Virus record (IMG/VR): IMGVR_UViG_3300037484_000235
Coordinates: 32,001-96,000 of that record
DNA length: 64,000 nucleotides
Strand: one strand, 5' to 3'
Source of the DNA: a virus
Taxonomy: Duplodnaviria; Caudoviricetes
Position numbers and translations under genes: made by a program. Under the pieces are notes generated by a model that was not told where the DNA came from, did no database searches, and saw only the letters and a program-made list of their open reading frames with translations. Of this stretch, positions 40,058 through 64,000 are shown one piece after another; the first letter of the stretch is position 1; each line of letters starts with the position of its first letter.

Positions 40058-40744
40058 ATGTCGAACCTTCGTTCTGGCCTCATCCGCCTCGCTCATAGCA
40101 AGCCAGAGTTTCGGCCTGCGATCCTGCCTCTGCTCAAGGAAGCCGGTTGTGAGAAACTCCCCGAAGGGGGTATGAGGGACAATTGCGAAAAGAAGGTCGA
40201 AGAGGGCAAGAAGGCATCCTCCTACCTCACTGAAGAGCAGTTTCGAGACAACAACCACACGCGCAACATGCGTTATCTAAACACGGCTCTTAAAGCGTTG
40301 TTGACGATTTCACGTTCTGTGAAATCCATTTACACCTCGGATGAGGGGGCACAACCGACGCGAGAGCAGTCGGCAGAGATGCTGATGACGGCTCAAGCCA
40401 TTGCGCTCAATGCTGGGGACATCGTCAAACTGGTGGGGCGTTCATCACGGACCACTAGAAGTAGGTCTTTCACCGCGAGTGCACGCCAAGAACTATTGTC
40501 CAAAACAGCCGCTTCGGAGATCCCTTTTTCGGAACTCCCAGAGCCTCAGATGGAACTCGTGAAGATCGTAGATCTGTCCCCGGTTACCATTTGGGATGGA
40601 GTCCACGGGTACATTGTGTCGTTCAAGAGCAGCTCACAAAGTGGGGCTCGGTTAGAGCGGGACACGCTCAAGAAGATTGTCGACCACAAGGACTTCCGTT
40701 GGATCTCCCCCTCTGGTAGGGGTAGCTTCTACATCGGGATGTGA
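40058..40744 (+). CDS. putative virion-internal protein with LRSxLIRLAH leader
   Basis: MSNLRSGLIRLAHSKPEFRPAILPLLKEAG; KxA junctions. Confidence 0.65.
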   Translation: MSNLRSGLIRLAHSKPEFRPAILPLLKEAGCEKLPEGGMRDNCEKKVEEGKKASSYLTEEQFRDNNHTRNMRYLNTALKALLTISRSVKSIYTSDEGAQPTREQSAEMLMTAQAIALNAGDIVKLVGRSSRTTRSRSFTASARQELLSKTAASEIPFSELPEPQMELVKIVDLSPVTIWDGVHGYIVSFKSSSQSGARLERDTLKKIVDHKDFRWISPSGRGSFYIGM

Positions 40745-41217
40745 GGACACCAATCATGGAACCCAAGAGTCAATCCAATCAGTCAAGTCTTGCTCAGCTA
40801 CTTGCCGTTCTCAGGGCAATCCACTGGAGTCATTGGACGGCTCACTGGCAAGTCAAGGGGACACCATCGTATAGCGATCACATCCTCTTCGATAGCCTAT
40901 ACACGGGGATCCCGGCTGAGATAGATGCTCTGGCCGAGAAGATGGTTGCCTATTTTGGCGCGGAGGCAGTTGCACCAATACCCAGCATGGCCCTCTCGCA
41001 GCAATTCCTTGCGACCCATAGCAGTGAGCCCAACGTGTACCGGCGCGCGTTGAAGATGGAACTCCAACTTCAACGGACGCTTAAGCAGGTATACGAGTCA
41101 ATTGAAGACTCCAATGAAATGAGCCTTGGGCTTGACGACTTTCTCATGGCTGTTTCAAACACCCATGAGACCTCAATCTATCTCCTCCGCCAGAGGTTGC
41201 GACCGTCAGCCGTCTGA
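40741..41217 (+). CDS. Dps/ferritin-like four-helix protein
   Basis: HW..HW.VKG, DH.LFD.LY, ID.LAEK. Confidence 0.8.
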   Translation: MRTPIMEPKSQSNQSSLAQLLAVLRAIHWSHWTAHWQVKGTPSYSDHILFDSLYTGIPAEIDALAEKMVAYFGAEAVAPIPSMALSQQFLATHSSEPNVYRRALKMELQLQRTLKQVYESIEDSNEMSLGLDDFLMAVSNTHETSIYLLRQRLRPSAV

Positions 41218-41859
41218 GTCCGGAGTAGATTCTTCCGCAGGACCGTTGATACCAGACATCTGCGATGCAGTGTCAGCGAGTGCTCTGGGTAGTAACTCCC
41301 CGTACTGCTCAACGGGGAGCAAGAACTTGCCGTCCTTTGTCTTCCCTGAGGCATCAAGTCCCTTGAGGAATTCCCCCATGACCGTGTAGAGGAAGTGCCA
41401 GACCTCGGGATTGCCCTGGGCGACAGGGTCCCCCTTCGCTGCCCAGACGAACTTCTTGGCGCGATTGACCAAGGCGAACATCTCCCGGGGCTTCAGGGAA
41501 CACCACAGGATGGTTCGGGTGCCCGAGGGGGATAGCTGATTCGTCGTGGCATCAAGGTGTGCTTCCAGCACGCGCTTGAAGAGTGCGGTGCGGGTGACGG
41601 TCTTCCCCTCATAGATCTCCGGGAACGCAGGGCTCCACACCCCCTGCTCGTAGGAGGACAGGAGGAAGTTCGATCCGTGAATCAGCCAGAACTCGTAGCC
41701 CGTCTGCGGATTCAAGGTGAAGTGTTCCAGGGAGTGCTTCTTCTTCTCCCGAAACTTGGTGGCTTCGCGGGCCTTTTCGATTTGTCGGTCTTTGGACCTG
41801 GCACTTGCCTTTTTTGCTCGTGTGCCTGCCTTCTGTGCTTTGTTCTTTGACATTCCCAC
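41206..41859 (-). CDS. hypothetical protein
   Basis: 217 aa, basic N-terminus. Confidence 0.6.
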   Translation of the reverse strand: MGMSKNKAQKAGTRAKKASARSKDRQIEKAREATKFREKKKHSLEHFTLNPQTGYEFWLIHGSNFLLSSYEQGVWSPAFPEIYEGKTVTRTALFKRVLEAHLDATTNQLSPSGTRTILWCSLKPREMFALVNRAKKFVWAAKGDPVAQGNPEVWHFLYTVMGEFLKGLDASGKTKDGKFLLPVEQYGELLPRALADTASQMSGINGPAEESTPDSDG

Positions 41860-41888
41860 ACCTTACACCCGGCGTAACGTACAACGTG

Positions 41889-43466
41889 ATGAATCCTGTT
41901 CTTGATCAGCAGAGGGCGTGGGAGCTTCTTTCGAGTGGCGCCCATGAAGTTGCACGCGTCGTGTCCAAGACCTTCGGCCCTGCGGGCGGCAAGGTCATGA
42001 TAGAGAAGGCAGGGTCGGTCCTTGTAACGACTGATGGGGCCGCACTCACACGCGAGACTCAGCTTGACGGTGCGAAGAGACTGGGTGCGACCCTCATCCG
42101 ATCTGCCGCAATCAAGACCGATGAGCAAGTTGGAGATGGGACTTCCACAACGGTGATCTTGGCGGACGCTCTCATCCGGGAGATTGGAAAGAGGGCTTGT
42201 GTGCACGGCTGGGATCCGGTGTGCACGGTAGCTCAAATCCGAGAAGCTCATCTGGAGGCAGAGGGTCAGATTCAGCATATGTCCCGCCTCGCAGATCGTG
42301 AGTGTTTGGATCGGATAGCCCTCATGGCTTCCCATGAAGACCCACTCATTGCCGAGAAGGTAGTTGAGGCGGTGCTTGCAGTAGGCGAGGGCGGGTCCGT
42401 GGTGATCTCGCCCTACGAGGGGACGGGGATTGTCCTTGAGCAGAAGGCCGGACTTTATCTCAATCAAGGGTGGACCTCCTTCGATATGGCACCGGCAGAC
42501 GGATCCACCGAGCGGGAGATGGATGGGCCTCTCGTGGCCGTGTTCCGCCAAGGACTTCGACGGGTGGGTGACATTGCGACTGCGATGGAGCAAGCGAGTC
42601 AGTGGCCGGGTCGTGGTCTCGTGGTGTTTGCGCCCAGTATCCAGGGGGATGCCCTCAAGACCCTCTTGGTCAATGACAAGAAGGGCGTGCTCTCGTGTGT
42701 GGGTGTCGAGTACTCGGGGTCATCTGCGGACCTGGACGACTGGCTTGAGGACATCTCGGCAGTCACCAATTCGATGATCGTGGATACAGGGACAGGGATG
42801 TCCCCTGAGAAGTTCGAGGGGTCGTGGTTGGGTTCCGCTCGAAGAGTGACCCTGACTCGGGAACACACACTCGTCGTCTCCTACCTGGATGGGGATATTC
42901 CCCAGAAGATTGATCTGAGAGTTGCCCAGCTTCGGGCGCGAGCCGAGGTCTCCCCCTACCCCTACGAGAAGGCCAAGCTCACGGAGCGTGCTTCGGCGAT
43001 CGATGGGGGCCTCTGTACGCTGCGGATCGGTGGACTCACCAAGCAGGAGGGTCAGGACCGTCGCTCACGGGTCGAGGATGCCCTCAAGGCTGTGCAGACG
43101 TGTCTGAGGGGCGGCGTGGTTCCTGGAGCGGGCTACGCGCTGTTCAGGGCCTGTGTGTGGCTCCCTCAGACCGAGGGCGGCGTGATACTGGACAGGGCTC
43201 TCATGTCGGTCCTGGGCACGCTGGCGAGCCGGGCGGGGGCAGAGCCTCAGACCGTTTTTCGGGAGGGCATGGAGGTCACTCTGTACGATCCCGATGGGTG
43301 GTACGGGTGGGATCCACTGCTTGGGGATTGGCGAGACTTCTGGGTGACGGCCCCACGAATCGTAGACCCCACTGAAGTCGTGTTGGCAGCTCTTAGGAAT
43401 GCCGTATCCGTTGCTTGTCAGATCGCTTTGTGCGGGGTGGTCCTTGGAGTGCACCCAAAACGATAA
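41889..43466 (+). CDS. groEL: divergent GroEL-like chaperonin
   Basis: TFGPAG, TTDG, GDGTST, GGVVPGAG, IVDPTEV..AL.NA.SVA; no GGM tail. Confidence 0.85.
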   Translation: MNPVLDQQRAWELLSSGAHEVARVVSKTFGPAGGKVMIEKAGSVLVTTDGAALTRETQLDGAKRLGATLIRSAAIKTDEQVGDGTSTTVILADALIREIGKRACVHGWDPVCTVAQIREAHLEAEGQIQHMSRLADRECLDRIALMASHEDPLIAEKVVEAVLAVGEGGSVVISPYEGTGIVLEQKAGLYLNQGWTSFDMAPADGSTEREMDGPLVAVFRQGLRRVGDIATAMEQASQWPGRGLVVFAPSIQGDALKTLLVNDKKGVLSCVGVEYSGSSADLDDWLEDISAVTNSMIVDTGTGMSPEKFEGSWLGSARRVTLTREHTLVVSYLDGDIPQKIDLRVAQLRARAEVSPYPYEKAKLTERASAIDGGLCTLRIGGLTKQEGQDRRSRVEDALKAVQTCLRGGVVPGAGYALFRACVWLPQTEGGVILDRALMSVLGTLASRAGAEPQTVFREGMEVTLYDPDGWYGWDPLLGDWRDFWVTAPRIVDPTEVVLAALRNAVSVACQIALCGVVLGVHPKR

Positions 43467-43498
43467 ACACCCTATCACCTAGACAAGGTGACGGGATT

Positions 43499-44737
43499 AT
43501 GCCCACCCCAAGAAATCTGTATGCTGCAATCGGGGGGACTCAGGAGAGTGCCCGTTCCGCAATCGGGGCGCTGGGTGAGGTCCAATCTGGAAACTCGTTG
43601 TATGTGGACTCCGTCTACGGTTCAAATGACACAGCGGCTCGGGGGCGCATTGACAAACCCTACCTGGCAGTTGCAGCGGCATTGGCCGCAGCCCAAGCAG
43701 GGGATGTTGTCCACGTTCGACCTGGAACATACCCCGTCACACCGTTCACAATTCCTGCCAATGTTTCCCTCGTTGGTGACATTAAACGGAGGACGCATCT
43801 GACATATACGGCTACGGGAAATGCCGCCATGATCACGATGGGTGTAGGGTCCAGCCTTAGGGAGATTACTATCGAGTTGTCGAGCGTTGGCCACCACACC
43901 CTCACTGGTGTTTGGTTTGACGACGCTACGGTTCAAACCGCGTATCTCAGGTCCGTTCATGTCCATGTGGACAACGCAGGGGCTGGTGCAGGTGCCAGCG
44001 ATGTTACTGGGGTTTTGGTCCAGTCTCTAGGAACCCAGGTGGTGGACAGCATCATGTTTGAGTCCACAATCACCGTGGATACGGTTGGGACGGGCCGTAA
44101 AAGATGCTTCCTAATGGACACATCGGTAGCGGATGCCAATCTGCAACACGTAGATATGCTGCTGAGTGCGCCTGCGTCCATCGATGCAATCGGGGCAGAG
44201 ATCAATATTGCGGGGGGTACGCTCCGCTATCTATCTGGTTTGGTGTCTGTCATTGCGGCGGTGTCCCCCACGACAAATGCCGACATATCTCAAACGGCGG
44301 GATTCCTACGGATGGGGGCGGTGACGCTTCTAGACAGTAGTTGTAAGGGTTTGGCATTTACAACCGTGGGGCAGAACTCCCCTGTCATCTTTGGGGATCC
44401 TGGGGGCATCACAGGCAACTTGTTCCTGCGTCCAGGTGGTGGATCAGGCAGTATCACGGAAGCTGACAATCAGCTGTATGTGGCCACGAGGTCCATCATT
44501 CAGGCGTTGTCAGCTCACGCAAATACTGGTCCAGGCGGGGTACTAACTTGCGTAGTCACTGTGCGCGTCAACGGGGTTCCCACCACATTGACGCTGACAC
44601 TTACGGGTGTGCAAACCAGCGGGACTGACCTGGTGCACGCTGTTGAAGTGCCTGCCGGTTCCCTTGTCTCCGTGCACGCGGCGGACGCTGGTGCAACTAC
44701 TGATCTCAATGTGTCCTTCCTAATCTCAGGCTGGTAA
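43499..44737 (+). CDS. beta-helix tail fibre/spike-like protein
   Basis: LYVD...G.N.....PY..A...A..GD.V.VRPGTY; G/T/V-rich beta content. Confidence 0.65.
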   Translation: MPTPRNLYAAIGGTQESARSAIGALGEVQSGNSLYVDSVYGSNDTAARGRIDKPYLAVAAALAAAQAGDVVHVRPGTYPVTPFTIPANVSLVGDIKRRTHLTYTATGNAAMITMGVGSSLREITIELSSVGHHTLTGVWFDDATVQTAYLRSVHVHVDNAGAGAGASDVTGVLVQSLGTQVVDSIMFESTITVDTVGTGRKRCFLMDTSVADANLQHVDMLLSAPASIDAIGAEINIAGGTLRYLSGLVSVIAAVSPTTNADISQTAGFLRMGAVTLLDSSCKGLAFTTVGQNSPVIFGDPGGITGNLFLRPGGGSGSITEADNQLYVATRSIIQALSAHANTGPGGVLTCVVTVRVNGVPTTLTLTLTGVQTSGTDLVHAVEVPAGSLVSVHAADAGATTDLNVSFLISGW

Positions 44738-44747
44738 AAGGATCCCA

Positions 44748-45416
44748 ATGGCTGTTACTTTTCTTGACCTGACGGGGGAATCCCGAAACCCACCACCACC
44801 CAAGACGGCGTCAGATGGCTCCAAGAATCCTATCTGTCGGCTTAAGAACAGCAAAGTTCTCGTTCGAGACCCTAAGACCATCACTGGCATTGGCATCCAC
44901 CAGACCGCTTGTGTCTTTGGACCAGCGGACAACTTGATCAAGAGGCATCGCAGAGCGTTCGACGTGCCATCCCACGCTCTGGCCTTTAGGGATGGTGTGG
45001 TGGCTACCGCGTTCCCGATGCTCTGGTACATGTACCACGGACACCGACTTAACGCCTTCACCTACGGCCTGGAAATCGAGGGACAGTACCCAGGTCTTCT
45101 CGATGACCCAGCGACTCCACAGCGTGAGGACATTCAGACTGCTTGGAAGGGCATCACCCCACTCGATGATCTCACGATTGAGACAGCACGAGCCGCACTC
45201 AAATACCTCTATGAAGAGGGGTTGAAGCTCGGGTCGCCTGTCCAGTATGTATGGGCGCACCGGCAGTCCAACGACAAGAAGATTCACGACCCTGGGGCTG
45301 GGATTTGGAAGCATGTTGTTCTGGACTACGCAGTGGCTGTCCTGGGGCTCAAGGTCGAACCCAACAGGAAGTGGAACGATGGTAATCCTATCCCCGCCGC
45401 ATGGGGAAAGCCATGA
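44748..45416 (+). CDS. N-acetylmuramoyl-L-alanine amidase (Amidase_2), endolysin candidate
   Basis: IGIHQTA, SH, N....GLEIEG, AHRQS...DPG. Confidence 0.8.
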   Translation: MAVTFLDLTGESRNPPPPKTASDGSKNPICRLKNSKVLVRDPKTITGIGIHQTACVFGPADNLIKRHRRAFDVPSHALAFRDGVVATAFPMLWYMYHGHRLNAFTYGLEIEGQYPGLLDDPATPQREDIQTAWKGITPLDDLTIETARAALKYLYEEGLKLGSPVQYVWAHRQSNDKKIHDPGAGIWKHVVLDYAVAVLGLKVEPNRKWNDGNPIPAAWGKP

Positions 45417-46180
45417 CCGTAAAGATCGCACGAGCCAACGTTCGCCCCCAACGCCAGCCAAATCAGTACTCATGCTGTACCACAAGTTTAAGTATGAGCC
45501 TGGAGGCTTTGGGTCTCCCGTTGTCAGAGGTGGGTGTAGAGCAGGTGAACAAGGTGCTCGGAGCCCAGCCTCTTCAGGGCGCAAGTTGGGACCAGGTTGC
45601 GGGCGCGGCTTCGCACTTCGGTTGTAGGGCGACGCTCGTGGTCCCGTCCACTTTGGCCCAGGTACGGGCTTGGACAGATGCGGGAACCCCCGTTCTAATC
45701 GGTTGGAACACGGGTAGCGAGTGGAGCCACGCAAGTCTGATTTTCGACGTGACGGACACCCACGTTTACATTGCGGACCCCAACATCACCAATCCGGAAC
45801 GGACCACACACGTTCTGCCTCACGATGAGTTCTACGAGAAGTGGTACGAGAAGGCGGCACCCGGATATAAGATCCGACGCTCAGCCATGGCAATCGAGCG
45901 TGAGATCACACCAGACGGGAGACAGGTCATGGCCAGTTCTATTCACTCAAAGTTGGCATCCAAGGTTGCAACCCGATTCGTCGCCGGCAAGAAGCTCCCT
46001 GAAGTGTGGGCTGTGATGATGCCCAAGAACACATCGGAACTGGAAGACATTTGGTTCAATGCGGGGGAGTTCATTCAGTCTCAGTTCCAGGACCATGGGG
46101 GTGTTGTTCACCTCTTCGACAATCGTATGCAAGCTAGAGACGTAGCGAAGTTGCTTTTGAAGACTCTTCCGAGAGTCTAA
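45413..46180 (+). CDS. C39-like papain-fold cysteine peptidase plus C-terminal ASKVATRF module
   Basis: Q....SC..TSL; WSHA; YIADPN. Confidence 0.8.
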   Translation: MTVKIARANVRPQRQPNQYSCCTTSLSMSLEALGLPLSEVGVEQVNKVLGAQPLQGASWDQVAGAASHFGCRATLVVPSTLAQVRAWTDAGTPVLIGWNTGSEWSHASLIFDVTDTHVYIADPNITNPERTTHVLPHDEFYEKWYEKAAPGYKIRRSAMAIEREITPDGRQVMASSIHSKLASKVATRFVAGKKLPEVWAVMMPKNTSELEDIWFNAGEFIQSQFQDHGGVVHLFDNRMQARDVAKLLLKTLPRV

Positions 46181-46217
46181 GTTAGACCCCCTATAATCCC
46201 CCGGTGGGAGAACCCAT

Positions 46218-49200
46218 ATGCCCACCGCCGGAAAGCGCGAACGTCGTCAGATGAAGGACCGGGAAATGTCCCGGACCATCAAGTATGGTCCTCCGAGTCA
46301 TGAGGGACCTAGCGAAGATCAGTCTGCCATTTCAGGGGTCGGCTGGCGTGAACGTAAAGAACAAGGGCAAGCTGGGATGGCGGGTGCCGGACGAGGAGGT
46401 CGACACAAGTCTCCTCTTGACTACCAGCGCAATCCCAAGCACCGGGACCAAGCCGAAGAGCGCTACGCGGATGTGGGGAGCCCACTCTCAACCCGTCGGG
46501 ACTATGGGGAGAAGACAGCTCGGGCGCCTAAGACCATGGAAGACTTCGCAGGACACATTAGTGTCCTTGTGGGGGGCATCAAGGACTTACAGCGTGCAAC
46601 GAAGCGCCTCAAGCCTCAGTTGCTTGAGCTGAGTCAGTCCGTGGATTTTCTGCCAGACATGCTGGGGTCTGCCCCCACGATGTCTGGGGACATGTTCGGG
46701 AAGGAACTCGACCTCATCTCGCGGTCCACCGAGGAGATTGAGAACTTCATCGACGAGGCACAGCGGTCGGCCGCGCTCTTGGAGCGCGTGTTGACCTCTG
46801 ACCGAAATCTTCGATTGGCTGCGACCGAAGTACCTCCCGGCCTAAAGAAGGGTGACTACATCGAAGTCATCGTATGGGATCGGAAAGACGCGGATGCTGA
46901 TCGGGCGGGAAACGTTCACAGCACTTACCGTGTGGTTCGCATTGAGGGTCCGAAGATCCTTGGTGTGGATTTTGAAGGACACAAAGCCTTCATTGATGTG
47001 GGCGACCGAAACGTAAAGTCTGTTCACGTACTAGATGACGATGCTGTTCACAAATTCGGGGGGGCTGCGACCCTTACAATCGTAGACGGACACCTGGAGA
47101 AGCTCATGATCACTGCCTCTGATTTCGAAGACGCGCTCAAAGAGTCCAAGTTCGAGGAAGGCAAGCCAGCCGACCCCACGAAGAACATGAGTAAGGAAGA
47201 CGCCGCTGAATGGAAGCGTCAGACCGAAGAGCACAAGGATGAGTTTAAGACGGCCGGGGTGCCCGAGGACCATCAGTTGAAGATCCTCAAGGACACCGTG
47301 AAGAACCCAATGAAGGGGAAGTTCCTGGGAGGGCCCTCTGCGGAAGAGGCTGAGAAAACTCTGCGCGAGAAGTTTCACTTCACGGATAAGCAGATTACTA
47401 CTCTGAAGAAGGCGTCCGTTGGCAAGATCGCAAGTGTAACCGTAGGTGCCATTGCTAGCTTGGTGGCAGAGGAACTAGGTGCTTTCTCGTCAGCTATCAA
47501 GAAGACCGAGGATACTCTTGAGACCATCAAGGACAGCGACACAGATTGGAAGATCTGGGGCAAGAATTCTGAGGGAGAAGACTTTGAAGCTACTCTCACA
47601 GTCACTGGAAATGGCTACTACAGCCTCTATGTCTCTACTCAACTTGGGTCTCGAATGGGATTTTACATCATAGGCCCGCACGAGAGAGACCCATCGAAGA
47701 TCAACGGGGCCCTACGTGGGTACACTGATCTTACTTGGGACATGCAGGGGTCGACACGGCCTCGCTTGGCATCGATTAAGGACTACGAGGTTGCCCTGCG
47801 CGTTGCTTCCCCAGGGGACAGCAAGGAGTCCAAGTTTGAAGAGGGCAAGCCAGCGGATCCAACCGAGAACATGTCCAAGGAAGATGCTGCCGAGTGGAAG
47901 CGTCAGAATGAAGAGCACAAGGACGAGTTTAAGACCGCCAAGGCAACCTATGTAGACCCCTCCATCGTTGGGGCGAAGCGAGTTGTCGATGAAGCTCGTA
48001 AAGAACTTGATCTTCTTTGGAGTAAGGGGCCTATTGTGTCTGGGTCGCCGGAGGCAAATAAGGCTAAGGACGCGTACAGGAAGTTTGAGGAGGCCAGTAG
48101 GGATCTCATGGATACCTACAAGTCTCTCCAAAATTGGAGATCAGCAACTCTGTCGGTAGACGACTACGCTGAGAGCTTGCGCGAAGCGAAGTTCCCCAAG
48201 GACAAGTCCATGACCGTGGACGAGGTGTCCGAGGTTGTGGGCCCTGAATTCAAAGAGATGAACGAGGACCCCCCGGAGTCTGTCAAGAAGCTTCAGAAGG
48301 AAATGCAGGGCAAGTCTGCTAGTGAGAAGATTGCGTTCCACTCCAAGCCTGCAATCAAGGCCATCCGCGATTATTACCTCGAAGCCATGTCTAAGCCCCT
48401 TCAGGAGTCTCTGGGTAAGGCGCTCTCAGAGCTGTACTCAGGACCGGGGTCCGCTGGTGATGACGAGGACGGCTGGACCTACAGCAAGGCCCTACGCGAC
48501 CTAGGGCGTTGGTGGGACTCCGTGGGGACCACGCTCTACTACGACACCCAGAGTGGCTTGGTGGAAGAGAGCCTACCCACAGCCTATCAGGATGGCGATG
48601 AGATGGTTGAACCCATGCTTGAGGACTACATGGAGTTCTCCGAGCGTGATGGTGCAAAAGCAATCTTTGGAGCGCTGATCACCGATGGTGGGATGCGTCT
48701 GGGGTCTCAGAAGGCCTCCAGGTCATCCGATGTTTCGAAGCGGGAGTGGCAGCGTGCCCTCAAGACCGATGAGGACATGCTCGTGAGTCTCAATGCCAAC
48801 ATCAAGAAATTGGAGTCCGGGGAGACGGTCGAAAACCTCACCCTGGAAAACGCGAAGCTGATCAAGGGTGGCCTTGAGCAGGTCATTGAGAACAAGAAGA
48901 ACCTCATCAAGAAGTTCGCGAACCTGTCGGACGAGACCACAGACAAGACTGCCGAGTGGAAGGGCTGGGACGAGGACATGCCTGTCCAGGTCGCGTCTGA
49001 ACACGGCAGTGAGGTCTTCGAGAACCTTGCGGATGCTCGTCGCAAGTACCCCGAACTTGACCCTAAGAAGGGTGGTGGAGGCTTTCACTGGGCTATGCGT
49101 GGTGAGGTGAAGGGTCGCCCTGCCATCCGATTTGAGAGCCACGGCCTATACAGGGCCATCTCGCGTGATGCCTCAGTGCATGAGGCGGCGGCTGGCCTCT

Positions 49201-50000
49201 ACGGTTTCACGAAGGAAGCTGAACGGGTCTGTGGGTCGGCCACGAACAAGCTCGCCAAGTTCACGGCGAAGCTCGCCAAGGACATCTACTCGAAGGACGC
49301 CGAGACCCCAGGCTTTCTAGAGGAACACACGACACGCACTGCGTCCAAGGCCGCTCGGATGCTCCGTGCATCCATGGCTGACATCGGCCCAGGCAAACCC
49401 TCCAAGACCGCAGCCTACAATCCGTGGATCAAAGAGCTAGGTGGGACTACAGACTTTTCCTCCATCGAGGTAGGCAAGTCATTTTCGTTCCCCAAGAGCG
49501 AAGAGGTTCTCACGAAGATTAGCCCTCGGAAATACAGGGACTCCTCAGGCCACTCCTTTGCAACGGGTTCTGGAACATCCGTTGTCCAGATTAAGACCGC
49601 AGCCAAGAGCGGCAAGGGGCGCTATGGGTTCTCTGCGAAGACCGCCAAGCTAGCCCTTGAGGCTTGCCACGAAGTAGAGCACCAGGCGGGTGTGGTCGCA
49701 AGTGACCTGCACACGCGCATGGGTGCAAAGCACGCCAGCATCACGGGCTTCCTTAACAAGCACGCGAAGCGCGCTAAGTGTGGTTGGAGCGACATGATCC
49801 TCGAAGCGTATCCGACTCCGGATGAGGCTGAGGTTCTGGCTTCGAAGTCTGCATCCCTAGAGAGCTACAAGATCCACCCAACGGTGGATGAGATTCTCTC
49901 GTGGGACGGTAAGGGTGGACGCCTGGCCGCTTCGTTCCTTGCTTCTGAGGAAGAGGGGTCCGAGGATAAGCCTGAGAACGAGGATGACAATCTAGCCTGA
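46218..50000 (+). CDS. large modular putative virion polyprotein
   Basis: 1260 aa; duplicated 39-aa module; two G.YGF modules; many [K/R]xA junctions. Confidence 0.75.
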   Translation: MPTAGKRERRQMKDREMSRTIKYGPPSHEGPSEDQSAISGVGWRERKEQGQAGMAGAGRGGRHKSPLDYQRNPKHRDQAEERYADVGSPLSTRRDYGEKTARAPKTMEDFAGHISVLVGGIKDLQRATKRLKPQLLELSQSVDFLPDMLGSAPTMSGDMFGKELDLISRSTEEIENFIDEAQRSAALLERVLTSDRNLRLAATEVPPGLKKGDYIEVIVWDRKDADADRAGNVHSTYRVVRIEGPKILGVDFEGHKAFIDVGDRNVKSVHVLDDDAVHKFGGAATLTIVDGHLEKLMITASDFEDALKESKFEEGKPADPTKNMSKEDAAEWKRQTEEHKDEFKTAGVPEDHQLKILKDTVKNPMKGKFLGGPSAEEAEKTLREKFHFTDKQITTLKKASVGKIASVTVGAIASLVAEELGAFSSAIKKTEDTLETIKDSDTDWKIWGKNSEGEDFEATLTVTGNGYYSLYVSTQLGSRMGFYIIGPHERDPSKINGALRGYTDLTWDMQGSTRPRLASIKDYEVALRVASPGDSKESKFEEGKPADPTENMSKEDAAEWKRQNEEHKDEFKTAKATYVDPSIVGAKRVVDEARKELDLLWSKGPIVSGSPEANKAKDAYRKFEEASRDLMDTYKSLQNWRSATLSVDDYAESLREAKFPKDKSMTVDEVSEVVGPEFKEMNEDPPESVKKLQKEMQGKSASEKIAFHSKPAIKAIRDYYLEAMSKPLQESLGKALSELYSGPGSAGDDEDGWTYSKALRDLGRWWDSVGTTLYYDTQSGLVEESLPTAYQDGDEMVEPMLEDYMEFSERDGAKAIFGALITDGGMRLGSQKASRSSDVSKREWQRALKTDEDMLVSLNANIKKLESGETVENLTLENAKLIKGGLEQVIENKKNLIKKFANLSDETTDKTAEWKGWDEDMPVQVASEHGSEVFENLADARRKYPELDPKKGGGGFHWAMRGEVKGRPAIRFESHGLYRAISRDASVHEAAAGLYGFTKEAERVCGSATNKLAKFTAKLAKDIYSKDAETPGFLEEHTTRTASKAARMLRASMADIGPGKPSKTAAYNPWIKELGGTTDFSSIEVGKSFSFPKSEEVLTKISPRKYRDSSGHSFATGSGTSVVQIKTAAKSGKGRYGFSAKTAKLALEACHEVEHQAGVVASDLHTRMGAKHASITGFLNKHAKRAKCGWSDMILEAYPTPDEAEVLASKSASLESYKIHPTVDEILSWDGKGGRLAASFLASEEEGSEDKPENEDDNLA
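47141..47939 (+). repeat. duplicated 39-aa module (about 47140-47255 and 47823-47939)
   Basis: KESKFEEGKPADPT[K/E]NMSKEDAAEWKRQ[T/N]EEHKDEFKTA, 37/39 identical, many synonymous DNA changes. Confidence 0.9.
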
Positions 50001-50393: not shown

Positions 50394-50414
50394 GATCTCT
50401 TTGCTCACCTTGGT

Positions 50415-56216: not shown

Positions 56217-56230
56217 TTGGACCCCAGCTC

Positions 56231-56515: not shown

Positions 56516-56589
56516 GGTGCGTCAACCTCCCATACACTGTGCGGGGTATGCCACCATCATCGCGGGACACGGCCGAAAGTTGCTTTTCA

Positions 56590-57420: not shown

Positions 57421-57439
57421 GATCCTCTGTATTTCTCTC

Positions 57440-58134: not shown

Positions 58135-58388
58135 TTGCGGCCTTTTTTCTCTGTGATGATAGTGATTGGAACCACCGTCTCGCACTCGATCTCACGGATG
58201 ATCCGACCAAGAGCCCGTCGAAGTTCCTTGGCATCCTCAACAGAGATGTGGGCGACCCCAGTTTTCTCATTGGATGAAGCCAGAATCTTGACCAACCCCT
58301 TACCATTTCCTGAATGGCCGATTTCCGCAATACCCTCTTGCCAGGCAGATACTATCCTCACAGACCACCTCCGCGCTCGGTCCTTCAC
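58131..58388 (-). CDS. hypothetical protein
   Basis: 85 aa coupled. Confidence 0.5.
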   Translation of the reverse strand: MKDRARRWSVRIVSAWQEGIAEIGHSGNGKGLVKILASSNEKTGVAHISVEDAKELRRALGRIIREIECETVVPITIITEKKGRK

Positions 58389-59005
58389 TTGGACCCACCT
58401 GTCAGGGAGTCACCTGTGTGGAACAACGGCCAGCGAGATTCCCACCCGTAGTGATTGGACACCACCCGGTAGGCGTCCTTGAAGAGGATCACAAGCTCAG
58501 AGATTCTCGTGTCCATCTGAGGGCCCTCTGCGGCCAAGACGACTTCAAGCGCTGCATCTGAGTAGCCACGGATGGCCTTGAGACCCCATTTTGGTGGAGC
58601 GAGGAACAGGTCGAGGACATTTGATGTCTTGTCGGCGATCTTGATCGCCTGACCCTCGATGCCCATGCTTCGCATCTTGCCGAGCTGGAAGATGTGCTTC
58701 GCTTCCCGGTCTTTCTTGACGTCATCCGGAAGTGTGAGGTCGTGGACCAGCCCCGCTACGTGGACACCGAACTTGGTGTTGATCTGTTCGATTGTGACTC
58801 TGGTGTCCTCTACTGTGTCGTGTAGAAGAGCGGCAATCAATGTGCTCGGGTCATTGAATCCAGCCTGGGAGACCCGACTGGATACATCGAAGCAGTGATT
58901 GACGTATGGGGTCCGAATCTCCCCACCACGGACCTGATCGAGGTGTGCGTTTGTTGCGAACTTCACAGCTTCCATGAGCTGTGGTACTAGGATTTCTGGT
59001 TTCAT
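58385..59005 (-). CDS. HD-domain small alarmone hydrolase (Mesh1/SpoT-hydrolase-like)
   Basis: FA..AH..Q.R, PYVNH, AALLHDTVEDT, IKIADK.SN. Confidence 0.88.
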   Translation of the reverse strand: MKPEILVPQLMEAVKFATNAHLDQVRGGEIRTPYVNHCFDVSSRVSQAGFNDPSTLIAALLHDTVEDTRVTIEQINTKFGVHVAGLVHDLTLPDDVKKDREAKHIFQLGKMRSMGIEGQAIKIADKTSNVLDLFLAPPKWGLKAIRGYSDAALEVVLAAEGPQMDTRISELVILFKDAYRVVSNHYGWESRWPLFHTGDSLTGGSK

Positions 59006-59016
59006 TTTGGAACCAC

Positions 59017-59247
59017 TTACGCCTTTTTGCCGGACTCCAAGTAAATCTCCGCCAGAGTCTTATTGGGCAGGGTGGGGTCTTGGATATCCCGTGCGAGCAT
59101 GTCTAGCTCGGCTGCGAACTTCTTGCGATTGGCACCGCGCATCAGATCCGCTAGGGTACTGACCATCCCTGCGCAACGGTTGCGTTCCGTCCTTTGGGCT
59201 TCTCGAACAAGGTCTTCATCCCGGGGGTCTAGGCGCTTGAGGTTCAT
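59017..59247 (-). CDS. hypothetical protein
   Basis: start MNLKRLD. Confidence 0.6.
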   Translation of the reverse strand: MNLKRLDPRDEDLVREAQRTERNRCAGMVSTLADLMRGANRKKFAAELDMLARDIQDPTLPNKTLAEIYLESGKKA

Positions 59248-59630
59248 CACATTGGCCCGCTCTTTCTGAACTGATCTTCGCAACACCACGTTCCGGTCGC
59301 CCATTCAGTAAGGGGGAGAATTCGCCCCTGACAGAACGGGCAGGGCTTTACGATCCTGAGACCAGAGCTGGCTAGATCCAGAGTGGCCTGCACCTTGGCC
59401 GTCACGAGTCCGTACCACTCTCCGCCAGGTAGAGCGTTGCAAGCGGGGCAGAGGATGTCCCCGTGGTCCAAGTCAATCTTGAAGTCAGGGGCAGGTACAA
59501 TCACCCGACGGAATTCAAATGGGGCACCACCACATTTGGGATGCGAAAGATGTGGGTCGAAGACGCTGAGCCAGTGCCACACCCGATCGAAACCACGTGC
59601 CGCGAATCGCTTCTCTGGTTTGTCGCTCAT
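59247..59630 (-). CDS. hypothetical Zn-ribbon protein
   Basis: CPAC..CPFC..CC. Confidence 0.6.
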   Translation of the reverse strand: MSDKPEKRFAARGFDRVWHWLSVFDPHLSHPKCGGAPFEFRRVIVPAPDFKIDLDHGDILCPACNALPGGEWYGLVTAKVQATLDLASSGLRIVKPCPFCQGRILPLTEWATGTWCCEDQFRKSGPM

Positions 59631-59635
59631 GATAC

Positions 59636-59863
59636 TCAACTCTCTTGAAAGACACCCAGATTGGTCACGGGCTGGCAGGTTGCACTGCATGTCAGGCACC
59701 ACATTCCCTTCCGTACGTAGTCCCCAACCAACATTGCACAAAGATCCTTGGATACACGGTACCTACCCGTGGAAATGTGTCCGATGTGACCGCATTCAAG
59801 AGTCACGCGGATCTCACGGGGAGCTTTCTTTCTGGTTGCCACGCCGCCCCTAACCCTCTTCAT
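59636..59863 (-). CDS. hypothetical protein
   Basis: LECGH..CLTC. Confidence 0.55.
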   Translation of the reverse strand: MKRVRGGVATRKKAPREIRVTLECGHIGHISTGRYRVSKDLCAMLVGDYVRKGMWCLTCSATCQPVTNLGVFQES

Positions 59864-60056
59864 TGGCGAGGAAGCGGACTGCAACCCGCGACACGCGACG
59901 GGTCTCACGAGCGTTGGCCTTCTTGGCATCCGACTTACGCCCCCGCACACAGCAAGAGCAGTTGAGCCCACCGGGTCCGTGCACCGAGTGTGTGTGGCAG
60001 ACACGACGAACACTACTACGGAGAGGGAGATACATTTGCAGTCCTTTCAGTTCCAC
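59850..60056 (-). CDS. hypothetical basic protein
   Basis: CHTH..GG..C.CC. Confidence 0.45.
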   Translation of the reverse strand: MELKGLQMYLPLRSSVRRVCHTHSVHGPGGLNCSCCVRGRKSDAKKANARETRRVSRVAVRFLANEEG

Positions 60057-60337
60057 TCCAGAAGGATCCAGATTCCTCCCTGACGAAGGTCTACGACTCG
60101 CGAGAAGTAGTACAGGTTACCCGATCGAATGACCCAGTCGTGCCCGAAGTCTTCGAGGAACGCTGTATGAAGGTGGATCGGCATGAAGGGGAGAGTGGGG
60201 GACTTGCTTTCATCCGTAAAGAACTGGAGCGTCCAGACTCGGTTTGGGCGTCCGGGAAGAGTCGGCCCACCAGCGAAGGGCACATGTCCTCGCGCAGTTT
60301 CACTCTTGGGCATCCAGACCAGTTCTTGACGGGGCAT
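60047..60337 (-). CDS. hypothetical protein
   Basis: AGAGG RBS immediately after tRNA-like RNA. Confidence 0.6.
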   Translation of the reverse strand: MPRQELVWMPKSETARGHVPFAGGPTLPGRPNRVWTLQFFTDESKSPTLPFMPIHLHTAFLEDFGHDWVIRSGNLYYFSRVVDLRQGGIWILLEWN

Positions 60338-60350
60338 GACGTGTTCCTCT

Positions 60351-60439
60351 TGGTGCCGGGTCAGGGAATTGAACCCTCAGATTTTAACCTGCCCCCAACC
60401 CTTGCGGGCCACCGCCTGGTGCTTCGAGGGGGTACCGAC
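60351..60439 (-). ncRNA. tRNA-like RNA with T-arm, acceptor 3' strand and ACCA but non-canonical 5' half
   Basis: GAGGG-UUCAAUU-CCCUG-ACCCGGC-A-CCA has exact tRNA 49-76 spacing; 5' GUCGG pairs with CCGGC; no 7-nt anticodon loop. Confidence 0.6.
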
Positions 60440-60461
60440 GTTGTGCTCTCTACACCCTAGT

Positions 60462-60491
60462 AACGGCAGGTAGGAGGATCATTACACGGTT
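60462..60491 (-). promoter_or_regulatory. promoter AACCGTGTAA-N16-CGTT driving tRNA-like RNA
   Basis: motif read directly; divergent pair. Confidence 0.8.
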
Positions 60492-60514
60492 CCCAGTCGA
60501 TTTTTCACTCGACG

Positions 60515-60544
60515 AATCGTGTAAAGAACCTTCCACCATACGTT
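60515..60544 (+). promoter_or_regulatory. repeated promoter AATCGTGTAA-N16-CGTT
   Basis: motif read directly. Confidence 0.85.
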
Positions 60545-60562
60545 ACACAGGCGAGGATGCAC

Positions 60563-61348
60563 ATGACCACCAATGCAAAGTCGGTTCTGGTAGCGGGATG
60601 CCTGGCGGAGATGGTTGAGGACGCTGGGGGTTCCCCTCGCTTCATCAGCTTCGCAACCCGCCTTTCGGGGGAAGTCCGTGGCTCGGGGGCCAACCGGATG
60701 CGTCGTGGAGATCACGTCATGGAATACACGCTCCTGACGGGATTTAGCTACATGAACATGGTCCGGAGGTCCGCACGCATGTTGCAAGAAGCCCTGCTCA
60801 GCCCATACTTTGTGGGCGAGGTGGTTGCCCTTCTGGCAGAGACCGTCGATGAACAGACCGGAGAGCCCATCAACGACACCGACGTACTGGACGCCATCTT
60901 TGGTACTGAACGGGGGCGCAAGGGTTTGCTTACGGCCTACAGTGAAACCCTGGCTGAGTCCAACACCTCCAGCAACGACCACGTTTACGAGCCCCTCATG
61001 GTGGATGGGGAGGAAGTCTCTGGGTGCAAGGTCTACACGGGCGAGGGTGACCCCACGGACCCGAAGGCGCCGGTTCCGGGCACCATGTACCTGAAGGGTG
61101 TCGAGATCTCCAGCCGGTGCGTCGAGAAGAGCCCCAATGGGGACAAGATCCTGAGCAAGCGGGGCGCCGTGGCCCTCGCCAAGGACTTCATCGAAGCCCG
61201 TCTCGCTCTTCCTGCAAGCACCTACCGCACGTTCCGCCTGTTGCCTGGAGAGGCCCTGAGCCTCAAGTGCGGTGGGGTCTCTCTCCACGCCGCAGAGGGT
61301 GAAGAGGCGCAGCCGGGGGCTGCTCGGATCGGGACGTTGATCGCCTGA
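60563..61348 (+). CDS. hypothetical protein
   Basis: 261 aa after promoter and RBS. Confidence 0.75.
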   Translation: MTTNAKSVLVAGCLAEMVEDAGGSPRFISFATRLSGEVRGSGANRMRRGDHVMEYTLLTGFSYMNMVRRSARMLQEALLSPYFVGEVVALLAETVDEQTGEPINDTDVLDAIFGTERGRKGLLTAYSETLAESNTSSNDHVYEPLMVDGEEVSGCKVYTGEGDPTDPKAPVPGTMYLKGVEISSRCVEKSPNGDKILSKRGAVALAKDFIEARLALPASTYRTFRLLPGEALSLKCGGVSLHAAEGEEAQPGAARIGTLIA

Positions 61349-61411
61349 CCGCGCATTTTGGTCTATATCTTCGGGTCTACGTCAGGAAATTTCTCCCTGC
61401 ACAGGCCCATC

Positions 61412-61966
61412 ATGAGTAATCCACGACAAGCCATCAATCTCCCGAAAGACGTAGAACGCTACGTCGAAGAGGGAAAAGACCAGGGTCTTACCGAAGACGT
61501 GGCCTGGCCAGTTGCTTGGAGTAGGTACTGCAAAAAGAATCCTGGCAGTGACCACTGCCACAAGTCCAAGGATGAGTATTTTCCTGGGCGAAAGGCTGAG
61601 GACGTGAGTTTAGCAAAGCGTGTGGCACAGCGGTATGCAACGCTCCAGAGCAACTCTGTTGTGGGTAGTCCAATTCGCCAGAGGATCAACTCTGAACTCA
61701 TCCGAGAGGGGATGGACGGTAACACCCGGTTCAAGTCTCCCGGAATGGCGTTGGCGAAAATCAACAGTGTGCTCCAGAAATTCAAGATTGAGTGGGATGA
61801 AGTCATCGATTCTTGGCGATTAAAGCAATCCAAAGGTCAAATGATGGTGACCTTGGCTACGCAGACAGCAGACCCTTTCTCCCCTGTTTCAATCGAGAAC
61901 ACAGCACTGTCGTTCCACTGGGACACACTTGAGTCTGGCATTGAAGTCATTGCCTATCTAGGATGA
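61412..61966 (+). CDS. putative virion protein (ChaB-like N-terminus, AKRVAQRY module)
   Basis: LP..V....E..AW.VAWS.Y; shared AxxVAxR[F/Y] motif. Confidence 0.55.
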   Translation: MSNPRQAINLPKDVERYVEEGKDQGLTEDVAWPVAWSRYCKKNPGSDHCHKSKDEYFPGRKAEDVSLAKRVAQRYATLQSNSVVGSPIRQRINSELIREGMDGNTRFKSPGMALAKINSVLQKFKIEWDEVIDSWRLKQSKGQMMVTLATQTADPFSPVSIENTALSFHWDTLESGIEVIAYLG

Positions 61967-61968
61967 TC

Positions 61969-63072
61969 ATGTCAAATCTTCGATCTAAGCTCATCCGGCT
62001 TGCCCACGCCAACCCAGAGTTGCGTGCAGATCTCCTGCCCCTCTTGAAGAAGATCGCAGGGGAAGAGGATCCGAGAGTTCAAGGTCTCAGCTCAGCAGAT
62101 CGAAAGGTCTACGATCGGTGGCTCTCCGAGGGGGAACCCGAGCTTGCGGACCGTTGGCTCAACAGGGTCTCCCCCATCGAGGATTCTAGCTCTGTGCTGT
62201 GGGACAAGATTGACGCCATCGTGAAGAGTGCACGAGAACGCTCAATGAAAGAGGGAAAGACTGTCTGGAAAGATAACACACCCCAGCACCTTCCCCTGTT
62301 CCGGAAGTACCTTGAAGAGGGCCTGAAAAAGGTCTTCCCTGGGGTGTCTATCAAGCGACAGATTGACCACGTTGTTCATGACCCGCAGGATAGATTCAAG
62401 ACACGCATGGATATCACGGACTACCTCCACAGGTATCTGCAAGGTAACCCAGCGAAGTTCGCAAGTGACAAAGAGGCGGGCCTTCCCCGTTCGACCTACC
62501 TACCGAAGGACAACGACACCCTCACTGAGCGCATCAATACTCCAGAAGGCCTGGACATCTGGACTTGGGAGATGCCAATTAGAGGAAACCCAGCCTATAG
62601 TGCCATCGCTTTCGCTGGCAAAGCTGACAAGCCTCTTTGGCAGTTCAACTACTCAGATTTCTCACGACGAGAGCGCCAGATTCAAGACACCATCAAGAAC
62701 TACGAGGCCGGTGCTGAGGCCAAGCGCAAGCGCCAGGAAGAGCGCAAGCAGTTCCAGCACGGACTCCAAGTAGGGGACATTCTTGTGGCCTCGTGGGGCT
62801 ATGACCAAACAAATGTCAACTGGTACGCCGTAGTCGGGGTGCCTACCGTAAAGATGGTTCTGGTACGAGAGATTGGATCCAAGATCATCTCTTCCGATGG
62901 GTCTGGATCAGACAGAGTTGTCCCAGACCCCAGTAGGCCCATTGGCAGTGTTCTGAGACGCATTCCAGGAGGCACCGCAGGAAATCCCAGGGTCAAGATT
63001 GAAGACAGCATAGTGGCCCACAAGTGGGAGGGGAGGCCTGAGCGTGCAACTTCTAGTGGTTGGGGGCACTGA
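61969..63072 (+). CDS. putative virion-internal protein with LRSxLIRLAH leader
   Basis: MSNLRSKLIRLAHANPELRADLLPLLKKIAG; internal KFAS/KEAG junctions; F..GDILV.SWGYDQTNV.WY module. Confidence 0.7.
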   Translation: MSNLRSKLIRLAHANPELRADLLPLLKKIAGEEDPRVQGLSSADRKVYDRWLSEGEPELADRWLNRVSPIEDSSSVLWDKIDAIVKSARERSMKEGKTVWKDNTPQHLPLFRKYLEEGLKKVFPGVSIKRQIDHVVHDPQDRFKTRMDITDYLHRYLQGNPAKFASDKEAGLPRSTYLPKDNDTLTERINTPEGLDIWTWEMPIRGNPAYSAIAFAGKADKPLWQFNYSDFSRRERQIQDTIKNYEAGAEAKRKRQEERKQFQHGLQVGDILVASWGYDQTNVNWYAVVGVPTVKMVLVREIGSKIISSDGSGSDRVVPDPSRPIGSVLRRIPGGTAGNPRVKIEDSIVAHKWEGRPERATSSGWGH

Positions 63073-64000
63073 TGACATACAACGAAGCTGTGGCCCTCCA
63101 GGAGGCCCTCCTAAAAGAGCTTCGCAAGGAGGCTGTTAGGAAGGATAGATACGAGCCAGTCCTGTCCACTCCACGCAAGATTCCATTCAAACCCAAGAAG
63201 TACTTGAGTGGTGGAGATCTGGTCCTGCGTCGAATAGCACTCTCGGCTAAGCGAGATGCAAGACATCAGAATGAGACTCGGGCTATGGACCTGCCATTAC
63301 CCGAACGGTACACCAACGAGATCAACCATGCCCTCGGATACAGCACCCTTCCATCGGAGCGCCAAGAGATTCTTGTGGAAGCCACTCGTGTGTACAACGA
63401 GAAGTTCAACTCAGTGATCCAGGAAGAGGCCCAGATGAAGACCGCAGCAGAAGTCACCAAGTCCACCGTCAAGTCCTGGATGAAGAAGAACGTGGCCGAC
63501 CACGTTGATCCCAAGACTGACGAAGTCAATGCCACAGGTCTTGCTGAGGCAGCTGCCCAGGAGTTCGACAAGAAGGATCTTGGGGGATGGCTCGACGACG
63601 AGAGTCATTGGGTTTGGGAGATAGCATCAGACGTGGCTGAGGCCCATGAGAAGTCCTCGAAGAAGGCAGGCAGACTTCGCTCTGGTCTGATCCATCTCGC
63701 ACACGCTAATCCTGATCTGCGCCCACACCTACTTCCGCTTTTGGTGCGAAAGGAGTCGAACTTCGTCCAACCCATCCTTGAAGGGATGACACTCACGATC
63801 CTTGGAAAGCCACACAAGGTGATGGGGGTGACTCGCGGGACGGAGTGGGATCTGTACTCATTTGATGATGGGTTCAGCTTCAGAAACATCAAAAGCAATA
63901 GGGAAGACCCTGGATCCAAAGTGGGGGGTGACCTCTACAAGAATGGCAAGCCAGTAGGAAAGCACCTGTCCCCCATAGAAGTGAAGAGGATTCTCCAAGA
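63072..64000 (+). CDS. putative modular virion protein, truncated by window end (not in ORF track)
   Basis: hand-read open frame MTYNEAV...; internal LRSGLIHLAHANPDLRPHLLPLL at 63675-63743. Confidence 0.75.
   Translation, partial: MTYNEAVALQEALLKELRKEAVRKDRYEPVLSTPRKIPFKPKKYLSGGDLVLRRIALSAKRDARHQNETRAMDLPLPERYTNEINHALGYSTLPSERQEILVEATRVYNEKFNSVIQEEAQMKTAAEVTKSTVKSWMKKNVADHVDPKTDEVNATGLAEAAAQEFDKKDLGGWLDDESHWVWEIASDVAEAHEKSSKKAGRLRSGLIHLAHANPDLRPHLLPLLVRKESNFVQPILEGMTLTILGKPHKVMGVTRGTEWDLYSFDDGFSFRNIKSNREDPGSKVGGDLYKNGKPVGKHLSPIEVKRILQ

Follow-up and report, generated by a model that had tools for sequence, protein, structure and literature searches.

A portable 23-residue peptide and a [K/R]-x-A junction motif in a phage-G-like jumbo phage: a putative system for loading and processing capsid cargo

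Three otherwise unrelated proteins encoded in a 64,000-nucleotide stretch of viral DNA (from IMG/VR record IMGVR_UViG_3300037484_000235), referred to here as the window, have a 23-residue peptide in common, and in each of them this peptide, the tag, is flanked by a short Lys-x-Ala motif. The locus raises the question of what the tag does and whether the flanking motif belongs to the same function. The window comprises bases 32001-96000 of one viral contig, 252,521 bp in length (56% G+C), whose completeness is ~57% by CheckV and which is attributed to an uncultured phage-G-like jumbo phage. A preliminary description of the window proposed that tag and motif form a capsid-targeting and processing code comparable to that of phage T4. 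The analysis described below points to a docking peptide and to a motif shared with the proteins of the head module. Positions are those of the window unless they are marked as genome positions, which refer to the whole contig.

The tag and its carriers

The translations of the three tags and their KEAG, KIAG (as KKIAG) and KKAG flanks were all found as the preliminary description had given them. The organization of the three carriers is as follows, with a slash at the putative point of cleavage.

40058-40744, plus strand: tagged protein 1 (228 aa), consisting of N-terminal tag, KEA/G, Cys module CEKLPEGGMRDNCEKK, KKA/S, linker, KTA/A and C-terminal alpha/beta domain
40067-40135, plus strand: tag copy 1, after M-S-N at the start of the open reading frame (ORF); 57.5 bits
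40136-40147, plus strand: KEAG junction, separating tag 1 from the Cys module
40148-40195, plus strand: Cys module CEKLPEGGMRDNCEKK, a small two-Cys module
40208-40219, plus strand: KKAS junction, 3' of the Cys module
40502-40513, plus strand: KTAA junction, preceding the C-terminal domain
61963-63072, plus strand: tagged protein 2 (369 aa), consisting of N-terminal tag, KIA/G, a ~130-aa region, KFA/S plus KEA/G, and a C-terminal domain of ~190-200 aa
61978-62046, plus strand: tag copy 2, after M-S-N at the ORF start
62047-62061, plus strand: KKIAG junction, 3' of tag 2
62455-62481, plus strand: paired KFAS and KEAG junctions, directly before the stand-alone-type domain
63072-64307 (beyond the window end at 64000), plus strand: tagged protein 3 (411 aa), four modules split by KTA/A, KKA/G (then the tag) and KTA/A
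63438-63449, plus strand: KTAA junction, where the shared module starts
63441-63671, plus strand: swappable module, residues 124-200 of tagged protein 3
63660-63671, plus strand: KKAG junction, directly upstream of the internal tag
63675-63743, plus strand: tag copy 3 (internal), residues 202-224 of tagged protein 3; 49.3 bits

A hidden Markov model of the tag (consensus LRSxLIRLAHxxPELRxxLLPLL, 23 residues) was used to scan the whole proteome, a check that the preliminary description had suggested. Ten full copies scored 49-57 bits and were separated by a gap from a degenerate eleventh copy at 14.6 bits. Nine of the full copies begin 2-5 residues after the initiator Met, and the third window copy is internal. 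Identity between tags is 73% at the amino acid level and 63% at the nucleotide level, and 68% of the identical residues are encoded by different codons. Therefore, selection acts on the peptide, and the tag is not a DNA repeat. In an all-against-all BLAST comparison of the proteome, most pairs of tagged proteins aligned over ~23-50 residues only, which agrees with the earlier statement that the carriers are otherwise unrelated; the exceptions were one pair of small paralogs and the carriers of the Cys module.

The conserved tag positions are hydrophobic (L1, I6, L8, A9, L15, L19, L20 and L23) or polar (R2, R7, H10 and R16), and Pro is conserved at positions 13 and 21. A single-sequence AlphaFold2 (AF2) model of tagged protein 1 had helices at residues 3-14 and 16-28, over the tag, with a predicted local distance difference test score (pLDDT) below 50 in that part. 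The tag is most likely a portable protein-docking peptide that would consist of two short helices with a break at a conserved Pro. The Pfam, PHROGs and NCBIfam libraries contained no family for the tag or for the Cys module, and a literature string search with parts of both returned nothing relevant.

Tagged proteins are common in public data. In the carriers that a first search recovered from other metagenomic contigs, the tag is internal or occupies either terminus or both. When 1.84 billion cluster representatives were searched with a profile, 3,705 carriers were detected at E<=1e-3 (606 at E<=1e-10), with 1-6 N-terminal, internal or C-terminal copies each. In the best 149 carriers, with two to six tags per protein, 122 tags are N-terminal, 159 are internal and 60 are C-terminal, and some ORFs near the major capsid protein (MCP) gene of relatives terminate exactly at ...LLPLLK. 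Many carriers are mosaics of charged low-complexity linkers and a few recurrent short motifs, namely the tag, the Cys module, P-[YW]-M-x-GEFTQQE and FEEGKPADPTKNMS. The genome studied here has GEFTQ in the head-module gene at genome position 157069 and FEEGKPADPTKNMS in a 1260-aa ORF of the window; these two motifs appear to connect the tagged proteins to the head module and were counted in favor of a function in the head.

The junction motif at module boundaries and in head proteins

In all three window proteins, [KR]xA[SAG] sites coincide with module boundaries that were defined independently, and therefore the earlier claim that [K/R]-x-A followed by A, S or G marks module junctions holds. 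The AF2 model of tagged protein 1, made without an alignment, had a mean pLDDT of 45, and its only moderately confident part begins directly after KTA/A, where the score rises from ~30-44 to ~70. Tagged protein 2 has the motif only at residue 30, after the tag, and at residues 165 and 170, before the C-terminal domain. This domain is found elsewhere as a stand-alone phage protein (phrog_37844, residues 213-361, E 1.8e-23), and the Atlas structural matches of tagged protein 2 span residues 161/171-369 (TM, template modeling, score 0.72-0.80). Residues 124-200 of tagged protein 3 recur as a unit in P0296 and P0297; the unit is bounded by KTA/A and KKA/G in tagged protein 3 and by KEA/A and KNA/A in P0296. 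The Cys module was found in three tagged proteins of this genome (also at genome 25200-25250 and in the genome 202300-202400 region) and in 18 of 168 metagenomic tagged proteins. K-x-A-G lies upstream of all five copies considered (the three of this genome, P0009 and P0010), and K-x-A-[SG] lies downstream of four of them. If cut out, the module would be a free peptide of ~25 residues.

The frequency of the motif was compared with that expected from within-protein shuffles (300 or 500). Tagged proteins have 24 [KR]xA[SAG] sites, with 8.2 expected, and six KTA[SAG] sites, with 0.2 expected (0 of 300 shuffles for both). The motif is real, and its occurrence is not random. In the untagged proteome, 225 [KR]xA[SAG] sites were observed and 164 were expected. 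When the tag and eight residues on either side of it were masked, the tagged proteins had 16 [KR]xA[SAG] sites (6.7 expected) and five [KR]TA[SAG] sites (0.36 expected), again with 0 of 500 shuffles for both. Four KTA[SAG] sites, with 0.53 expected, were found in 19 independent metagenomic carriers (0 of 500 shuffles). A set of 258 tags, for which ~2-2.6% would be expected, had the strict site directly downstream of 31% of the N-terminal tags and directly upstream of 37% of the C-terminal tags, and internal tags had it upstream in 38% and downstream in 31% of the cases. The enrichment of [KR]-x-A-[S/A/G] at the tag edges was 12-19-fold. KKAS, KEAA, KTAS, KKAT and KQAS were the commonest four residues before internal tags, and K-x-A-S typically precedes both internal and C-terminal tags.

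An unbiased ranking of all proteins by their excess of [KR]xA[SAG] identified eight that went beyond every shuffle. They are the scaffold (11 sites, 2.1 expected), the prohead protease (7 and 1.9), the head-module protein at genome 157069, two proteins encoded just upstream of the terminase gene (genome 143015 and 144144), a degenerate-tag protein, the 1260-aa ORF of the window (15 and 4.5) and one other. The ranking also picked the head-module protein at genome 152805 and the block at genome 143015-146303, just upstream of the terminase. The head module and the ORF behind its MCP gene are laid out as follows.

Genome 148081-149922: large terminase
Genome 150512-152212: portal, after the large terminase
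Genome 152515-152814: tagged 99-aa protein, after the portal
Genome 153591-156965: 1124-aa ORF with a HAD_SAK_1 domain and a eukaryotic-type topoisomerase IB catalytic core
Genome 158327-159844: prohead protease (phrog_18299)
After the prohead protease: scaffold-like protein, 432 aa, very acidic
Between the scaffold-like protein and the MCP: decoration-like protein
Genome 162035-162913: HK97-type MCP, 292 aa (phrog_2522)
Genome 163032-165626: 864-aa ORF directly after the MCP gene, with LAGLIDADG, HNH-like and CGNR zinc-finger matches

The MCP is 39% identical to gp27 of Bacillus phage G and 48% identical to that of Tunturiibacter phage Tunturi_5, and the prohead protease is 39% identical to the annotated head maturation protease gp331 of Tunturi_5 (E 6.6e-53) and 41% identical to phage G gp19. 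A comparison of 23 scaffold homologs (26-72% identical) showed that two aligned [KR]-x-A-[SAG] sites are kept while their middle residue varies (T, V, E, A, K, M or Q). The first, near the N-terminus, has the form W-S/N-D/G-[KR]-x-A-S-A-P-P, and the second, which immediately precedes the conserved C-terminal tip, has the form T-L-G-x-V-x-[KR]-[T/V/E/A]-A-[S/A/G/H]. The scaffold equivalent of Tunturi_5, gp332, has nine such sites, some of them near both ends, and the Tunturi_5 protease has one near the C-terminus. In the N-terminal arm of the MCP, Tunturi_5 has KSA/A and phage G has ETE/E at that place. The motif is richest in the protease, the scaffold and their neighbors, a distribution that fits the specificity of a head protease. 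[KR]xA[SAG] is thus probably a head-protease code with Ala at P1 and a basic residue at P3. We infer that cleavage takes place at this motif and that the prohead protease is the enzyme that cuts.

Two other proteins of the window have the motif.

46218-50000, plus strand: 1260-aa ORF, untagged, with the 15 sites mentioned above and a FEEGKPADPTKNMS module at 47151-47222
44748-45416, plus strand: Amidase_2-domain protein with KTA/S at residues 19-22 (44802-44813)

The 1260-aa ORF is likely a substrate of the same putative system, though it is untagged. The KTA/S of the Amidase_2 protein looks like the mark of a short N-terminal propeptide. Separately, a 1339-aa UvrD-type helicase (genome 248060-252079, minus strand) has eight [KR]xA[SAG] sites, including two KTA[AS]; with 4.4 expected, this number is not significant. 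The protease itself has a Cys-rich insertion (C-x6-C-x2-C...C) within the protease domain and a long C-terminal extension. AF2 modeling of the protease domain with 16 homologs gave a mean pLDDT of 44 and was unusable, and a profile search of PDB sequences with the protease returned no match.

The preliminary description had mentioned a second tag, AxxVAxR[F/Y], with three occurrences. Three were indeed found in the window, one of them outside the 40058-63743 region to which the description referred.

45956-45979, plus strand: ASKVATRF, in ORF 45401-46180, where it immediately follows the C39-like peptidase domain
61613-61636, plus strand: AKRVAQRY, in ORF 61358-61966 (202 aa), the gene just upstream of tagged protein 2
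14427-14450, minus strand: ASQVATRF, at the N-terminus of a PolyA_pol/CCA-type nucleotidyltransferase, ORF 12852-14474

Its fuller form in the window is A-x-[KR]-V-A-x-R-[FY]. Genome-wide, AxxVAxR[FY] occurs six times, with 0.2 expected, and never in tagged proteins; therefore it is a separate motif. The copy that follows the C39-like domain is kept in the tag-bearing relatives G005 and G002 and is absent from the tag-free G003 and G004. AxxVAxR[FY] is a real, separate short motif of the tag-bearing lineage, and it may be a second address or binding motif.

Proposed docking and processing, and the distribution of the tag

A model in which the tag serves packaging was favored because the junction motif concentrates in head-morphogenesis proteins and at the boundaries of modules other than the tag. 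The tag would dock its carrier to a component inside the assembling prohead, which could be the shell, the scaffold or the protease, and proteins with several tags would bind multivalently and gain avidity. Cleavage by the prohead maturation protease would follow [K/R]-x-A where the next residue is S, A or G; it would separate the tag, the small modules and the cargo domains from one another and would also trim the scaffold and the protease itself. The pieces freed in this manner inside the head could exit with the DNA. We infer both the link between tag and encapsidation and the identity of the receptor. The chances that the full model, with a docking peptide that loads cargo into the prohead and a head protease that cuts the junctions, is correct seem to us evenly balanced.

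The extreme C-terminus of the prohead protease offers a lead to the receptor. It is a helix, x-T-L-[IV]-R-L-A-K-L-L, which is kept in homologs down to 39% identity in both of the clades described below and weakly resembles the first helix of the tag. The pattern [LMVI][IV]RLA[HKSNQ] occurs 12 times in the proteome, with 0.2 expected; ten of the 12 matches are tags, one is the protease tail and one lies in the C-terminal region of a 719-aa head-block protein. A role of R-L-A-H within the tag as a pseudo-substrate site was considered and set aside; homologs of the protease tail mostly have K where R-L-A-H has H. HK97-type proteases are carried into the prohead by a C-terminal tail. Should this manner of delivery apply here, the tag might share the docking site of the protease tail, an idea that we offer as a hypothesis only. 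A complex prediction for the MCP and the tag fell below the mark and counts neither for nor against binding.

The distribution of the tag was assessed in whole genomes and at MCP loci. Whole-genome searches found 11 tags in a 485-kb relative, 12 in a 248-kb relative and one weak match in a 618-kb genome. For the MCP comparison, the best 80 of 573 matching IMG/VR stretches were used. MCP identity in these 80 is ~90% or higher, and some of them are on contigs of 200-618 kb; the capsid protein of this very large group of uncultured huge phages thus appears to be unusually frozen. At these loci, identity is only 25-81% for the scaffold and the protease. Tags were found at 12 of the 26 loci with KTA at MCP residues 19-21 and at none of the 54 with KTP. 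The KTA/KTP divide and the presence of tags correspond to one split on the MCP tree, and their coincidence therefore has the weight of one event. Tags are restricted to one MCP subclade. The scaffold sites and the head-module genes are present in both the KTA and the KTP clades, and the cut code looks clade-wide, whereas the tag seems to have been added in one lineage. The chaperonin and the C39-like peptidase were considered as a tag-specific partner or processing enzyme and were rejected, since both are present in complete tag-free genomes.

Several observations weigh against the packaging model. Two complete sister genomes (375 and 312 kb), whose MCPs are ~91-92% identical, have no tags, and no head-module gene specific to the tag-bearing clade, which would be a candidate receptor, was found. 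The tagged genes are dispersed over the whole genome on both strands. Only one of 50,697 GenBank phage records has the tag, at 11 places in an uncultured 485-kb genome, and no cultured carrier was found among them. About one third of the tags have the strict site on the cargo side. K-x-A-S before the tag and K-E-A after it are possibly, in part, helix caps that belong to the tag, and the motif excess in the scaffold may partly reflect a local Lys/Ala-rich composition that within-protein shuffles do not preserve. KTA/S, present in the N-terminal arm of the MCP of this phage, was rejected as a generally conserved cut site, because the sister clade has KTP. Homology between the tag and the protease tail was likewise rejected and is kept as a lead; hhalign aligned only seven columns (P 0.0024, probability 12%). 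Finally, both the presence of tagged proteins in virions and their cleavage are predictions made from sequence. The proposal that tag and junction are one code was sustained insofar as the two are co-enriched, but not in the fraction of tags with a strict cargo-side site or in phylogenetic range, the tag being found in one subclade and the motif across the clade.

Other explanations of the tag were weighed against the packaging model. A chance similarity, or a repeated DNA element that is read in frame, has a negligible probability, being ruled out by the gap from 49-57 to 14.6 bits, the 68% codon difference and the thousands of public carriers. It is also highly improbable that the tag is a structural helical repeat unit of the LRV or HEAT type with no addressing role. 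The I-R-x-A-x-x-N-P pattern resembles the LRV_2 repeat, and LRV_2 (PF25591, cut-off 27 bits) does match over the tags of three multi-tag metagenomic proteins, but the best of these matches (13-16.5 bits, E 0.008-0.09) lie far below the curated cut-off and this genome has none. Moreover, the carriers in this genome mostly have a single copy at the extreme terminus, joined to unrelated domains, and a solenoid repeat is unlikely to be stable in such a setting. These sub-threshold matches make tag-on-tag stacking conceivable and in this way favor a different possibility, in which the tag is a multivalent association motif and no capsid address; it would join tagged proteins to each other or to a hub in an intracellular assembly, for example a scaffold-like network, a condensate, or a factory for replication or assembly, and its flanks would be helix caps and not cut sites. 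The occurrence of up to six tags per protein, the short-motif mosaics with charged linkers that make up the carriers, and a head module without a clade-specific receptor gene would all suit such a motif. We consider it unlikely; it leaves unexplained the concentration of [KR]xA[SAG] in the protease, the scaffold and head-module proteins, the conservation of scaffold sites far from any tag, and the motif at the boundaries of modules other than the tag.

The tag could instead bind a conserved hub outside the capsid, such as a host factor, the phage chaperonin or another enzyme, as a short linear motif that recruits or regulates phage proteins. Short motifs that can stand anywhere in a protein and keep their charged residues are typical of this kind of binding, and the gene for the phage chaperonin adjoins that of tagged protein 1. 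However, the chaperonin and the C39-like peptidase are also encoded by complete tag-free relatives, a host target would need to be conserved over the whole host range of the tag-bearing clade, and the links to the junction motif and the head-module motifs are left unexplained. Hub binding is quite unlikely in our estimate.

The neighborhood of tagged protein 1 and some other genes deserve a brief description. A plus-strand block at 36952-46180 surrounds tagged protein 1. Its order is a VWA/CobT-like 696-aa protein, a NADAR domain protein, a DUF5856 protein, the GroEL-type chaperonin (41805-43466), a DUF1565 beta-helix protein, the Amidase_2 protein and the C39-like peptidase. An N-terminal domain of ~135 residues (39-51% identity) is common to three minus-strand proteins, at 33989-34876, 34956-35492 and genome 97138-98418, which by this similarity are a small paralog family. 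In the head module, the position of the 1124-aa HAD_SAK_1/topoisomerase IB ORF suggests a virion-associated enzyme, and the 864-aa ORF after the MCP gene is possibly a mobile endonuclease or an intein-like insertion.

Relation to known systems and significance

In T4, a capsid targeting sequence (CTS) brings internal proteins to the core and is removed by the prohead protease gp21, and the head-protease code of T4, phiKZ and SPN3US is x-x-E (Mullaney and Black 1996 for the CTS, as summarized in PMC5694885; PMC5694885 for the code). Like the CTS, the tag is a short peptide common to unrelated proteins and is adjoined on the cargo side by a putative protease site, which is also frequent in scaffold or core proteins; the carriers are a variable, fast-changing accessory set. 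The CTS differs in being a propeptide of 10-20 residues that is only N-terminal and ends in (L/I)-x-E, whereas the tag has 23 residues, occurs at any position in 1-6 copies and has no x-x-E, and [KR]-x-A-[SAG] adjoins 31-38% of tags on the cargo side. T4 has a gp23-type MCP, the gp21 protease and the gp22 core, whereas the MCP and protease considered here are phage-G-like and packaging is putative. The preliminary description was supported with regard to a portable peptide and to a pattern that fits P1 Ala and P3 basic, but a leader restricted to the N-terminus does not describe a tag that has up to six copies and is also internal or C-terminal.

Extensive cleavage of head proteins after Glu, at S/A/G-x-E or A-x-E, was described for phiKZ, 201phi2-1 and SPN3US (PMC5694885, PMC10052503). 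These are also jumbo phages with many candidate internal head proteins, a three-residue code, several sites per protein, and a protease that itself has sites near its C-terminus. As with the processing codes of T4, phiKZ and SPN3US, the motif studied here is concentrated in scaffold, protease and head-module proteins and is kept at aligned scaffold positions. The difference lies in P1, which is Glu in those phages and putatively Ala here, with a basic P3, and in the portable tag, which has no counterpart of this kind in phiKZ, 201phi2-1 or SPN3US.

Other likenesses concern the manner of docking. P22-type scaffolding proteins have a coat-binding helix-turn-helix at the C-terminus, and the HK97 protease has a C-terminal capsid-targeting tail. 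Both are small, basic, helical docking elements inside an HK97-fold shell and are transferable, as the tag putatively is, but each serves one protein, whereas the tag is found in thousands of families, and no sequence relationship was detectable between them and the tag. Encapsulin cargo-loading peptides are likewise short terminal peptides, at either end of diverse cargo, that dock to an HK97-fold shell, which is the putative role of the tag; they have fewer residues, show no sequence relation to the tag and are not cleaved off by a protease, in contrast to the combination of tailed phage and processing code found here. With respect to cleavage, herpesvirus assemblin cuts (V/L/I)-x-A before S. 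It is also a capsid maturation protease with an Ala/Ser cut in the scaffold and in itself, which is putative in our case, but its P3 is hydrophobic and not basic. By analogy, the system seems in its logic less like the T4 leader than like the coat-binding helices of scaffolds, or the cargo peptides of encapsulins, with a processing code added.

We tentatively propose, with a confidence that falls somewhat short of even, that one subclade of phages has a programmable cargo system unlike every described one, in which a position-independent, multi-copy docking tag is combined with a [K/R]-x-Ala head-protease code. In such a system the prohead would take up mosaic "polyproteins", which would there be cut into tags, small Cys- or GEFTQ-type peptides, and enzyme or effector domains. 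The cultured relative Tunturi_5 has the same protease family and the same motif pattern, which makes this interpretation testable. If it is correct, cargo addressing and a head-protease code arose with a different chemistry in the phage-G-like lineage, and the tag functions at the N-terminus as well as at the C-terminus of a protein and also when repeated. The tag would also offer a new way to load foreign proteins into large capsids. So far, such knowledge of packaged and processed proteins is limited to a few cultured phages (T4, phiKZ and SPN3US among them); for a widespread clade of uncultured huge phages, the packaged proteome and its processing would become predictable from sequence alone.

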